From IMG/VR virus record IMGVR_UViG_3300017917_002068, positions 1-64,000 of that record: a stretch of DNA of 64,000 nt. One strand, 5' to 3'. A program made the position numbers and the translations under genes. Source of the DNA: a virus. Positions 4,027 to 9,990 of this stretch are shown here, piece by piece; position 1 is the first letter of the stretch; every line of letters begins with the position of its first letter. Below the pieces are notes generated by a model that was not told the DNA's origin, did not search any database, and was given only the letters and a program-made list of their open reading frames with translations.

Positions 4027-4100
4027 GCCCAGGTAGCCGAATTGGTATAGGCACTACGTTGAGGTCGTAGGTTTTGTGAGTTCGAATCTCACCCTGGGTA
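4027..4100 (+). tRNA. tRNA-Leu(GAG) lacking the long variable arm; CCA not encoded
   Basis: Acceptor GCCCAGG/CCTGGGT; CTACG-TTGAGGT-CGTAG; 5-nt variable loop GTTTT; T arm GTGAG-TTCGAAT-CTCAC. Confidence 0.85.
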
Positions 4101-4113
4101 CAAAGGAGACAAT

Positions 4114-5164: not shown

Positions 5165-5713
5165 ATGATGAGAACATTTATAACTAGCGACCTACACTTC
5201 GGACATAAGAACATAATGAAGTTCTGTCCGCAGACCCGAGGACACTACAAAGACACAGATGAAATGCGTGAAGATATGATACGCATTTGGAATAGTCAGG
5301 TGCAAGACGGAGATTTGATTTATATTTTGGGAGATGTGGCATTTCTACCTGCCGTGGATGCTGTTAAAATCATGCGCAGACTTATCGGTCGTAAAATACT
5401 TGTAGAAGGTAATCACGATCGCAAGCTGCTGAATGATCCGGCGTTCCGTGATTGTTTTGAAGAAATACACAAGTATCTTTGGATCAATTACGAAGGCACA
5501 CAGGTAGTGATGTTTCATTATCCCATTTGGGAATGGGATCAAATGCACAGAGGTTCAGTACATTTTCATGGTCATCTTCACGGTAACCCAAACGGTATGG
5601 AAAAGTACCGTGCTCGCGATGTAGGGTGTGATGCTACTGGACAGGTTGTTTGGTTAATGGAAGATGCTATCAAGGACGCTCTCAAGGGAGAGATTAGGGG
5701 TCATCATGTCTAG
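5165..5713 (+). CDS. Calcineurin-like metallophosphoesterase
   Basis: Motifs SDLHFGH, LGD, GNHD, HYP, HGHLH. Confidence 0.9.
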   Translation: MMRTFITSDLHFGHKNIMKFCPQTRGHYKDTDEMREDMIRIWNSQVQDGDLIYILGDVAFLPAVDAVKIMRRLIGRKILVEGNHDRKLLNDPAFRDCFEEIHKYLWINYEGTQVVMFHYPIWEWDQMHRGSVHFHGHLHGNPNGMEKYRARDVGCDATGQVVWLMEDAIKDALKGEIRGHHV

Positions 5714-8048: not shown

Positions 8049-8582
8049 ATGAAAACAGTTGGTCATAAATTAGAAAAATTTGCCGTAACAGGCGTTAATC
8101 CGGGTAAAGATGATTTCTTTACTATCACAGACGAATCTTTCGCAGGTAAGTGGAAGGTGATCGTTTATTATCCAAAGGACTTTACATTCGTATGCCCAAC
8201 AGAAATCGTTGCCTACGATAAGCTGTACAATGATTTCGCGGATCGCGATGCAGTGTTACTAACTGGTTCTACTGATAATGAGTTCTGCAAATTAGCATGG
8301 CAGGCCGCTCACGAAGACCTCAAGAAGATCAAACACATTCAATTCGCTGACACACAACGTAATGAGTTGAGTCTTATCGATCAGCTAGGAGTATTCTACG
8401 CTCCAGCAGGTGCTGCTCTACGTGCCACCTTCATCGTTGATCCAGATAACGTTATTCAACACGTTACTGTGAATAATCTAAACGTTGGTCGCTCACCTGA
8501 AGAAACACTTCGTGTTCTAGATGCGCTACAAACTGGCGAACTATGTGCTTGTAATCGTACAGTCGGCGGAGAGACACTATAA
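8049..8582 (+). CDS. ahpC: Peroxiredoxin AhpC
   Basis: YPKDFTFVCPTE, RATFIVDP, VGRS and resolving LCAC. Confidence 0.95.
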   Translation: MKTVGHKLEKFAVTGVNPGKDDFFTITDESFAGKWKVIVYYPKDFTFVCPTEIVAYDKLYNDFADRDAVLLTGSTDNEFCKLAWQAAHEDLKKIKHIQFADTQRNELSLIDQLGVFYAPAGAALRATFIVDPDNVIQHVTVNNLNVGRSPEETLRVLDALQTGELCACNRTVGGETL

Positions 8583-9088
8583 TGGCATTCATCGACGCTA
8601 TCAAAGAAGCGTTGCCAGACTACGCCAAGGACACCAAGTTAAATCTTGATGCTGTTCTTGTGCGTAGTACATTAGATGCAGATGTGGCCATGGGTTGTGC
8701 TGTGGCAGCACTTGCCGCAACTGGCAACGGTAAAGTGTTGGCTGTAATGTTAGCTGACAATCCTGTACATGCAGAGTCGGCGATGACGGCTGCAAGTATC
8801 ATGGCACAGAACAACGTATGGTATCCATATGTTGAGATGGCTGACGATGAAAATCTAAAAGGCTTGCCGGCACAGCTACGCATGAATGCTATCATGAATC
8901 ATGGCGGAACTACCAAGGCAAACTTTGAAGCATTTAGTTTGGCTGCTAGCATTGTTGGCAAGTGCCATTTCTGTGTCAAGGCACACTACGACACACTTAA
9001 GAAGGAAGGCTACACAGTAGAACAACTTCGTGACATTGGCCGTATTGCCGCAGTGATGAACAGTGTTGCTAAAGTTTTAAACAGTTAA
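8582..9088 (+). CDS. ahpD: Alkyl hydroperoxide reductase AhpD
   Basis: LPDYAKDTKLNL, MAQNNVWY and CHFCVKAH; coupled to ahpC. Confidence 0.92.
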   Translation: MAFIDAIKEALPDYAKDTKLNLDAVLVRSTLDADVAMGCAVAALAATGNGKVLAVMLADNPVHAESAMTAASIMAQNNVWYPYVEMADDENLKGLPAQLRMNAIMNHGGTTKANFEAFSLAASIVGKCHFCVKAHYDTLKKEGYTVEQLRDIGRIAAVMNSVAKVLNS

Positions 9089-9172: not shown

Positions 9173-9586
9173 ATGTTAGAATGTTTAATTATTGGCGATA
9201 GTATTGCTGTTGGTACAGCAATGGCTCGCCCAGAATGCACCAGTTATTCTCGAGGTGGATGGAATAGTTGGCAATGGAACAAAGATTATCTTGACAAGGC
9301 GTCAGGTCGTCCTGCCAAAACTGTTATCATTAGTTTGGGTGCTAACGATCATAAAGGCGTTAAAACTGAAGCAGAGCTTCGCAAGATGCGCGAATCTATC
9401 AAAGGAGATCGTGTATTTTGGATCAGTCCAGGTTTCGAAAGAAAACCAATCCCACAACAGGCTATCGAAAAGATCGCCAAAGAGTACGGCGATGTAATAT
9501 TGCCAAGACCCGAAGCACATATGAGCAAAGACGGTGTCCATCCTACTGGAAAAGGATATAGAGTCTTGGCCGATCAAACTCGTTAA
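9173..9586 (+). CDS. SGNH/GDSL hydrolase
   Basis: GDSI, LGAND and DGVHP motifs. Confidence 0.85.
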   Translation: MLECLIIGDSIAVGTAMARPECTSYSRGGWNSWQWNKDYLDKASGRPAKTVIISLGANDHKGVKTEAELRKMRESIKGDRVFWISPGFERKPIPQQAIEKIAKEYGDVILPRPEAHMSKDGVHPTGKGYRVLADQTR

Positions 9587-9636
9587 TTTAATCAATTATT
9601 CTTGCTTTTGCACGTTATAGGTTATATAATAGTAAT

Positions 9637-9746
9637 GTGGTCGTGAGCAAACTGGGAAAGCTCCCGCCGTGCCCATAGCACGGAATGGGGACGGGGCGTA
9701 GGCATAGCCGTAGCCTTTGCAGGTTCGGATCCTGCCGACCACACCA
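9637..9746 (+). ncRNA. tRNA-like RNA with an enlarged, non-canonical anticodon arm and a long variable arm
   Basis: Perfect acceptor GTGGTCG/CGACCAC-ACCA; T arm GCAGG-TTCGGAT-CCTGC; own promoter TTGCTT(9602)-17-TATAAT(9625). Confidence 0.8.
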
Positions 9747-9789
9747 ATTACTTTTATAAGTAACTGACAATTATTAAAAGGAAAATGTT

Positions 9790-9990
9790 ATGTCAAATAC
9801 AGTAGAACAAATTAAACAGCACTTTGATGCTTTTCTAGCAGAAGATGGTAAATTTACTTCAGGCAATTCTGCTGCCGGCACTAGAGCCCGTAAGGCACTT
9901 GCTGAATTAGCCAAAGCTGTTAAAGTTCGTAGAAATGAAATCACAGCGGAAAAGAATGCCCGCAAAGAAGCCAAAGCAGCAGGCAAGTAA
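9790..9990 (+). CDS. Small basic histone-H1-like (Hc1-type) protein
   Basis: GNSAAGTRARKAL.EL.K..K..R motif; RBS AAGGA. Confidence 0.65.
   Translation: MSNTVEQIKQHFDAFLAEDGKFTSGNSAAGTRARKALAELAKAVKVRRNEITAEKNARKEAKAAGK

Follow-up and report, generated by a model that had tools for sequence, protein, structure and literature searches.

A compact tRNA-shaped RNA gene without an anticodon loop in uncultured phages

Phages T4 and T5 encode small RNAs among or beside their tRNA genes, namely RNA1 and rna2 of T5 (annotated as misc_RNA in AY692264) and the species 1 and species 2 RNAs of T4 (rnaC and rnaD in AF158101). Here we describe an RNA gene of comparable build in an uncultured virus, IMG/VR record IMGVR_UViG_3300017917_002068. 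The stretch of DNA that was analysed, referred to below as the window, comprises the first 64,000 nucleotides (nt), or 64 kb, of this 128,003-base record, which is estimated to be 37% complete. The element lies between a gene for a GDSL/SGNH-type hydrolase (9173-9586) and a gene for an Hc1-type, histone-H1-like protein, and comparison with its relatives indicates that it is almost certainly a real gene for a non-decoding, tRNA-shaped RNA. The small RNAs of the T4 and T5 tRNA clusters have been annotated for long, and to our knowledge none has an assigned function.

As a class, these RNAs have in common with the RNA described here a tRNA-like closing stem and a T arm, without an anticodon. Visual inspection of T5 RNA1 reveals an acceptor-like stem, a Leu-type D arm of the form CCG-GAAUUGGUAGA-CGG, a hairpin in the place of the variable arm and a T arm, as in the present RNA, and unrelated sequence stands where the anticodon arm should be, much as that arm is replaced here; T5 rna2 and T4 rnaC likewise end in a T arm and closing stem. 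The T4 and T5 RNAs are longer (119-144 nt) and carry large inserts, whereas this RNA is compact and carries only a plain hairpin, and T5 RNA1, T4 rnaC and T4 rnaD lack a CCA at their annotated ends, whereas this RNA encodes one. Unlike them, it has a predicted promoter of its own at +1 and is usually tied to an Hc1-like gene: 59 of the 63 members of its family precede such a gene and four precede tRNA genes, while the T4 and T5 RNAs lie in tRNA clusters. Kinship in sequence was rejected, since a covariance model of the family (R1, built on 34 distinct sequences) gave only 16.0 bits for T5 rna2, 15.7 bits for T4 rnaC and 14.5 bits for T5 RNA1, below the tRNAs of the same loci. The T4 and T5 RNAs are analogues, not demonstrable relatives, of this RNA. 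The part of PMC9693318 available to us holds nothing on rnaC, and a literature search on the T5 RNAs returned nothing.

Class-II tRNA-Leu shares with this RNA the acceptor stem of 7 base pairs (bp), A73, CCA, a 3-bp D stem, a D loop with A14-A15 and G18G19, a long variable arm and a standard T arm. In contrast to tRNA-Leu, the RNA has no anticodon loop, the arm in that place is longer and exchangeable, and the variable arm has two tiers separated by a 3x3 internal loop. Another point of comparison is tmRNA (SsrA), a chargeable, anticodon-less tRNA mimic that works via its acceptor/T-arm half. Unlike tmRNA, the present RNA has a true D stem and a variable arm, and it has neither a tag reading frame nor pseudoknots. 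Alanine charging needs G3-U70, and the family has an invariant G3-C70 (62 of 62 sequences); this pair, a length of 110 nt that leaves no room for a tag, and the silence of both the ARAGORN tmRNA search and the Rfam tmRNA models at the element led us to reject a tmRNA identity. In YrlA, a Y RNA, the RNA ends form the Ro-binding stem. The ends of the present RNA form an acceptor stem with ACCA, and no TROVE gene was found in five related records, so that this identity was rejected as well. As far as the accessible part of PMC7824862 goes, Y RNAs of the YrlA type are non-decoding RNAs with a tRNA-like elbow that occur in some phages.

The family is a compact new variant of phage tRNA-like stable RNAs. 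No description of it was found in the literature, and the candidate phage RNAs of PMC10690425, which number in the thousands and were available to us in part, may include it. Neither tRNA finders nor Rfam detect its members, a class of RNA genes that occurs in well over a hundred contigs of uncultured phages. Its compact form (a length of 110 nt, a single copy in each genome, a promoter of its own and a simple hairpin for an anticodon) makes the RNA convenient to work with; should its function require no more than the acceptor end, elbow and long arm, charging, pull-down and defence tests would be simple to design.

Conservation of the tRNA frame

The two flanking proteins, the hydrolase and the Hc1-like protein, were searched against viral contigs and yielded 160 loci, 47 of which contain the element by blastn. 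R1 matches were obtained in 44 of the 80 Hc1-related loci, in the window, and in 5 of the 80 hydrolase-related loci; among the 36 Hc1-related loci without a match, one that is cut at the contig start (L113) still shows the 3' end of the element. Full-length members score 92-122 bits, a 5'-divergent copy (L011) 69.8 bits and real tRNAs at most 42.3 bits. A degenerate pattern of the family T arm occurs in at least 120 viral stretches and in no contig of 185,579 prokaryote species, each represented by one genome. R1 confirmed 79 of the 80 loci returned by this pattern, the 80th having the pattern at its very start. The collection amounts to 63 distinct sequences, that of the window and 62 further homologues, all in uncultured phage contigs. 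One of these, L185 (6074-6170, minus strand), lacks the 5' acceptor strand together with a portion of the D arm and scores 59.5 bits, with an Hc1-like gene still following it; it is apparently a decayed member.

One copy each was found in the record of the window and in three related records (G001, which is 100% complete, G003 and G004), and none by R1 in a fourth (G002, 79% complete). Blastn in distant mode with the window element and a typical member gave no match in 50,697 GenBank phage records, nor did tblastn with the Hc1-like protein against GenBank phage records, and an exact search of viral contigs for the window's own T arm and acceptor returned no hit. Together with one relative (L088), the window copy forms a small variant with G58.

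The case for the structure rests on the relatives, because single-sequence folding of the window copy does not go beyond chance (z = -1.83, with 8 of 200 shuffles equally stable, computed on 9638-9746, one base short). In an R1-guided alignment of the 62 full-length sequences (L185 left out), 93.6% of 1924 cells are paired, 20 of the 32 pairs change on both sides and 178 cells carry double changes; none of 500 shuffles reached these values, and sliding the partners by 1-3 columns left 27-48% of cells paired. This alignment is fitted to R1 and leans toward the structure. In an unguided alignment (MAFFT/RNAalifold), the acceptor, arm-base, outer variable-arm and T helices were likewise found, with covariation in 10 of 20 pairs. 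By region, the acceptor stem is paired throughout with 5 of 7 pairs changed on both sides, the outer variable-arm helix is 99.7% paired with 3 of 5 pairs covarying, the inner one 100% paired with 2 of 3 pairs covarying and 31 double-change cells, and the T arm 100% paired with 1 of 5 pairs covarying; the first pair of the long-arm base, otherwise C-G, is G-C or G-U in 6 of the 62 sequences. Each of U8, A14, A15, G18, G19, the U48-like base, T54-T55-C56 and A73 is present in all 62, and, by analogy with tRNAs, the U48-like base would be the partner of A15. The CCA end is complete in 60 of 62 (C74 61, C75 61, A76 60), the triloop of the variable arm reads N-U-A (U in 58, A in 60), and T-loop position 58 is A in 60, with G in the window copy and L088.

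The acceptor stem, D arm, T arm, tertiary bases and CCA end of a canonical tRNA are thus present in the family, while its anticodon arm, a 5-bp stem with a 7-nt loop of U33, anticodon and purine 37, is absent from the element. A sequence-only reading of the window had proposed a stand-alone tRNA-like RNA with a perfect acceptor stem, T arm and ACCA end and without a 7-nt U33 loop. These parts are all in place, and compensatory changes across homologues argue for a conserved gene; the variable arm that it drew with GGC and GCC strands is likewise real, and extends into an outer helix (Table 1).

The standard tools are silent: ARAGORN called no tRNA at the element, Rfam gave no match there at gathering score, and at E<=10 the one match, on the minus strand (E 3.2), was read as chance. 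The Rfam tRNA model RF00005 had no match to the window copy even at E<=10, nor at four other family members at E<=1. A script written to find further anticodon-less RNAs with a tRNA frame yielded none that was credible in the window, where the G58 of the element hides this copy from the script; across about 1.6 Mb of retrieved loci it returned only family members and one match judged to be coding sequence.

Table 1. Features of the RNA gene and its immediate surroundings, in window coordinates
Feature	Position	Strand	Remarks
-35-like hexamer TTGCTT	9602..9607	+	3/6 matches; 17 nt upstream of the -10 box
-10 box TATAAT	9625..9630	+	ends 6 nt before G9637
Whole tRNA-shaped RNA, 110 nt, G1 to encoded CCA	9637..9746	+	family model R1 111.6 bits, E 1.2e-23
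Acceptor stem	GTGGTCG 9637-9643 with CGACCAC 9736-9742	+	perfect pairing, 7 pairs
U8, G9 and D arm	9644..9662	+	stem AGC 9646-9648 with GCT 9660-9662
D loop, 11 nt	within 9644..9662	+	bears A14, A15, G18, G19
Long arm replacing the anticodon arm	9663..9689	+	base CCC 9663-9665 with GGG 9687-9689
Internal loop of the long arm, 1x3	G9666 / AAT 9684-9686	+	
Distal 6-bp hairpin (fold 1)	9667-9672 with 9678-9683	+	loop CCATA 9673-9677
Unpaired linker G-A-C, long arm to variable arm	9690..9692	+	variable alignment columns 69, 71 and 72
Variable arm, outer helix	9693..9717	+	GGGGC 9693-9697 with GCCTT 9713-9717
Variable arm, inner helix	GGC 9701-9703 with GCC 9707-9709	+	triloop ATA 9704-9706; 3x3 internal loop below
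Single T between variable arm and T arm (position-48-like)	9718	+	invariant, 62/62
T arm GCAGG-TTCGGAT-CCTGC	9719..9735	+	
Acceptor 3' strand, discriminator A, CCA	9736-9742, 9743, 9744-9746	+	
A/T-rich hairpin TTACTT-TTAT-AAGTAA with the word ATAAGTA	9748..9763	+	no T tract; not a terminator by the scan rule
66-residue Hc1-type, histone-H1-like gene	9790..9990	+	Pfam PF07432 Hc1, E 2.6e-14

The arm in place of the anticodon arm

The tip of the long arm differs between sub-families. A tip of the form C-YCAUA-G on a 6-bp stem occurs in 19 sequences, including that of the window, and a tip CGUU-GNRA-AACG in 32, with the loops GCGA, GUGA, GGGA, GAGA, GCAA and GUAA; other members have CUAG or UUUUU loops on A/U-rich stems or a 10-bp stem of the GCUAAGG type, and in L180, an RNA of 97 nt, four pairs are capped by UUCG. 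Folded alone, the long arm and the variable arm take the same outline in every member. Since plain hairpin tips are exchanged for one another at the position of the anticodon, the RNA cannot decode, which agrees with the non-decoding character proposed from the window alone.

Two foldings of this arm can be drawn in the window copy: the distal 6-bp hairpin (fold 1) and an extended helix CCGT.CCCAT / ATGGG.ACGG (fold 2). The sequence-only reading had taken them for mutually exclusive folds, possibly those of a switchable mimic, and had named homologue covariation as the means of choosing between them. Within the window sub-family (19 members, 16 distinct arm segments, gapless alignment), pairing stands at 99.3% for fold 1 together with the CCC/GGG base, along with 27 double changes, values that none of 500 shuffles reached; for its distal hairpin the figure is 99%, and 4 of 6 pairs covary. 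Fold 2 comes to 82.6%, and its values for pairing, double changes and covariation were matched in 48 of 500 shuffles. By energy, each of the 19 members favours fold 1: narrowly in the window copy (-45.6 against -44.9 kcal/mol), whose single-sequence minimum-energy fold uses fold 2, and by 1.4-13.8 kcal/mol in the 18 others. The single sequence leaves the choice to the relatives. Fold 1 covaries and wins by energy whereas fold 2 does neither, and we conclude that there is no conserved switch: both folds stand as drawings of the window copy, and their alternation finds no support in the covariation of the sub-family.

Several readings of the element turn on this arm. An arm that alternates between the 6-bp hairpin and the extended helix is very unlikely to be what the family has kept: the two folds of the window copy differ by only 0.7 kcal/mol with fold 2 as the minimum, and the inner CCCAT/ATGGG pairs are possible in 12-16 of the 16 rows, but the pairing of fold 2 is matched by shuffles at the rate given above, two of its outer pairs are broken in 8 and 11 of the 16 rows, the energies favour fold 1 throughout the sub-family, and the arms of the remaining sub-families (GNRA, UUCG and others) are unable to adopt fold 2. 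To be placed just as low is a real decoder on an extended arm, in which C-Y-C-A-U-A-G would open to a 7-nt loop with anticodon CAU (UAU in L171). The loop is kept in 19 sequences, 7 of 16 rows have U at the 33-like place, and A follows CAU; against this, the flanking C-G pair is invariant, C occupies the U33 place in more than half of the rows (9 of 16), the arm exceeds a tRNA anticodon arm by about four stacked layers, 44 of the 63 members have loops unable to be anticodons, and neither ARAGORN nor Rfam accepts the RNA as a tRNA. Least probable of all, and hardly credible, is a decaying tRNA pseudogene or a tRNA whose insert is spliced out. The tRNA finders do miss the element and one relative (L185) is truncated, yet 62 full-length relatives keep the structure through compensatory changes, with invariant tertiary-core bases and conserved promoter spacing. 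Random decay was looked for among the homologues and none was seen, and no way was found of drawing on the sequence an excision that restores a normal anticodon arm, and with it a normal tRNA; the region in question is only about 27 nt long.

Two smaller observations concern the loop of the window sub-family. In L171 (3927-4037, minus strand), the conserved loop word CAU is UAU (C-C-U-A-U-A-G), a single case that may be chance; if read as anticodons, both words would presumably address the isoleucine codon AUA. Pairing of the CAUA loop with the start region of the Hc1-like gene was considered and dropped by eye, the members with GNRA loops sharing the same start context.

Promoter, Hc1 linkage and possible function

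Upstream of the element, 56 of the 63 sequences have a -10 box of sigma-70 type (at least 5 of 6 matches, A2 and T6 among them) whose end lies exactly 6 nt ahead of nucleotide 1; in most of the other seven, the distance is 5-9 nt. A -35 element with at least 4 of 6 matches at a spacing of 16-18 nt is present in 30 of 63, several reading TTGACA. The -35 of the window copy matches at only half of its positions, and for this reason a consensus promoter scan of the window called no promoter. The conserved spacing of the -10 box agrees with the placement of +1 at about the mature 5' end that had been proposed for the window alone, and implies that the RNA should start there; in the window, transcription would begin at G9637. 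A search for RNA data led to one sequencing run (share 0.04; kept as contigs, and tentatively labelled as RNA), which contained only relatives 80-95% alike and so does not bear on expression or RNA ends.

An Hc1-like start (ATGTCAA...) follows 25-65 nt downstream in 59 of the 63 members. Hairpins with the word ATAAGTA follow most homologues (by eye), the stem shifting in register while the word stays; in the window, this hairpin lies between the CCA end and the ribosome-binding site of the Hc1-like gene. It could be a processing site or an operator. A reading of ATAAGTA as a second -10 box was dropped, with G at the sixth position and no -35. As the hairpin before the Hc1-like start has no T tract, co-transcription of the RNA and the Hc1-like gene is likely. 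In four members (L009, L015, L067 and L180), which have promoters of their own, tRNA-Arg, tRNA-Cys or another tRNA stands within 2-10 bases downstream, which indicates that the RNA is a unit in its own right and not merely a leader of the Hc1-like gene. L180 is located in a large tRNA array, where the stretch 5581-5665, 44 nt upstream of the family member, scores 45.9 bits on the Rfam tRNA-Sec model (cut-off 47).

What could be the role of a tRNA frame that reads no codon? We propose the following model, which we consider to have about an even chance of being right: the element is a single-copy phage gene that is functional, and its product, a non-decoding RNA of class-II tRNA-Leu type, acts via its upper body, with leucyl-tRNA synthetase (LeuRS) as the likeliest partner. 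The RNA would be made as a primary transcript with a 5'-triphosphate, requiring no RNase P, usually together with the Hc1-like gene, and its 3' end would be trimmed back to CCA. Folded into the L-shape of a tRNA, it would act through its tRNA-like upper body and meet proteins that read tRNA ends and elbows. Among these the LeuRS of the host would be the likeliest partner, as this enzyme needs A73 and the core formed by the D and T arms and not the anticodon, and the RNA would carry leucine yet read no codon.

The resemblance to tRNA-Leu is seen in the R1 scores, where the best real tRNAs are the tRNA-Leu of the window, of loci L066, L049, L078 and L004, and of T4 and T5 (31.8-42.3 bits); other class-II tRNAs reach 23-28 bits (Ser) and 26.6 bits (Tyr). 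As described for the Aquifex enzyme in the accessible portion of PMC2377443, A73 and the D/T tertiary core are crucial for LeuRS, the anticodon loop contributes nothing, and removal of the entire anticodon arm lowers affinity about 2.5-fold with kcat unchanged; how the variable arm was oriented mattered, no base in it was an identity element, and A58G significantly harmed leucylation. Given the conservation of A73, CCA and the core, typical members appear to carry what LeuRS needs, whereas the window copy, with its G58, may be a poorer substrate. That the RNA is charged in vivo, most likely with leucine, is a possibility that we rate at somewhat less than even; the sequence-only reading had taken charging to be probable.

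A number of observations weigh against this model. R1 contains a long variable arm and hence favours class-II tRNAs, and T5 tRNA-His (34.0 bits) scores with T5 tRNA-Leu (33.8 bits). A73 is not diagnostic in this phage, whose two tRNA-Ser and tRNA-Ile(UAU) also have it. The G58 of the window copy and L088 sits badly with the harm ascribed to A58G in what we could consult of PMC2377443, and by the same source the needs of LeuRS account only in part for the conserved variable-arm shape and N-U-A triloop. In the five related records, one of them 100% complete, no class Ia synthetase (PF00133, the one synthetase class searched for), Leu/Phe-transferase (PF03588), CCA-adding enzyme (PF01743), FemAB (PF02388) or TROVE protein (PF05731) was found (0/5 each), so that a partner is probably a host protein or an unrecognised phage one. 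The D-stem pairs tested never vary, and covariation is therefore silent on the D stem. In the GNRA sub-family the hairpin barely varies (3 double-change cells, equalled by 130 of 500 shuffles, with 22 of its 32 sequences used and duplicate arm segments left out); as this covariation is weak, the case for the hairpin rests on the window sub-family and on the swaps between sub-families. The link to the Hc1-like gene in 59 of 63 members fits a role in cis as well.

Such a role would make the tRNA shape a 5' module of the Hc1 message, that is, a processing or punctuation signal or a stabiliser that sets its 5' end and lifetime. The short distance to the Hc1-like start, the conserved ATAAGTA hairpin after the CCA and the lack of either a terminator or a convincing second promoter between the two would all suit it. 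We nevertheless regard it as improbable: the four members with their own promoters precede tRNA genes, 35 of the 80 Hc1-related loci have no trace of the element, the Hc1-like gene persists behind the 5'-truncated copy in L185, and punctuation would need neither the invariant A73 nor an encoded CCA nor a start exactly at nucleotide 1. Slightly better placed, although still unlikely, is an uncharged decoy or sponge that copies a class-II tRNA in its acceptor end, elbow and long arm, its aminoacylation being irrelevant; it might soak up host proteins that attack or sense tRNAs, for instance defence enzymes modifying or cutting the 3' ends of tRNAs or class-II tRNAs, or occupy tRNA-processing enzymes. 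The phage invests in tRNA warfare, with 14 tRNA genes and a set of phosphatase, kinase-like and Rnl1-type RNA-ligase genes, the conserved parts of the RNA are those exposed to proteins that bind ends and elbows, the predicted strong, early-type promoter would give a high copy number, and G58 is tolerated in the window copy. However, such a decoy is without a known target, a pure mimic of shape needs neither the Leu-type D loop nor an A73 found in 62 of 62 sequences, and the ligase set is directed against anticodon nucleases, which would fail to recognise an RNA lacking an anticodon loop.

Extending the LeuRS model, it is conceivable that phages widely make non-decoding tRNA-Leu frames that are charged by host LeuRS, chosen because this enzyme ignores the anticodon, and that the frame itself, not the insert, is the active part. 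We offer this generalisation tentatively and think it rather doubtful. If it holds, the bare-hairpin "cargo" and the start at nucleotide 1, as a 5'-triphosphate transcript, in the Hc1-linked lineage would show the frame to be the active part. The RNA might then carry or donate leucine outside the ribosome, retune LeuRS or EF-Tu by competition, or serve as bait for immunity directed at tRNA ends. Leucine charging, if confirmed, would add a new viral case in which aminoacylation serves an end other than decoding.

Other features of the window

By ARAGORN, the window contains 14 tRNA genes. Both tRNA-Ser genes (UGA, GCU) and a tRNA-Ile(UAU) with a long variable arm, at 1043-1134, 1142-1231 and 1238-1330, have A and not G before the CCA. 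An A in this position is unusual for tRNA-Ser, and raises for these genes and for the tRNA-Ile(UAU) the question of which synthetase charges them. The tRNA-Leu(GAG) at 4027-4101 is 75 nt long and, unlike the other 13 tRNA genes, has neither a long variable arm nor an encoded CCA. A GOLLD RNA occupies 397-858 (197.6 bits), with a tRNA-Asn-like unit nested in it at 460-530.

Between 4552 and 7048, consecutive matches were obtained to a dual-specificity-phosphatase fold, a metallophosphoesterase, an AAA_33 kinase-like P-loop protein and a T4 Rnl1-type RNA ligase, four genes that look like a tRNA-repair set. Further along, a short open reading frame at 7298-7849 matches only the C-terminal domain of malonyl-CoA decarboxylase, and an AhpC-type peroxiredoxin gene followed by a CMD/AhpD-type gene occupies 8049-9088.

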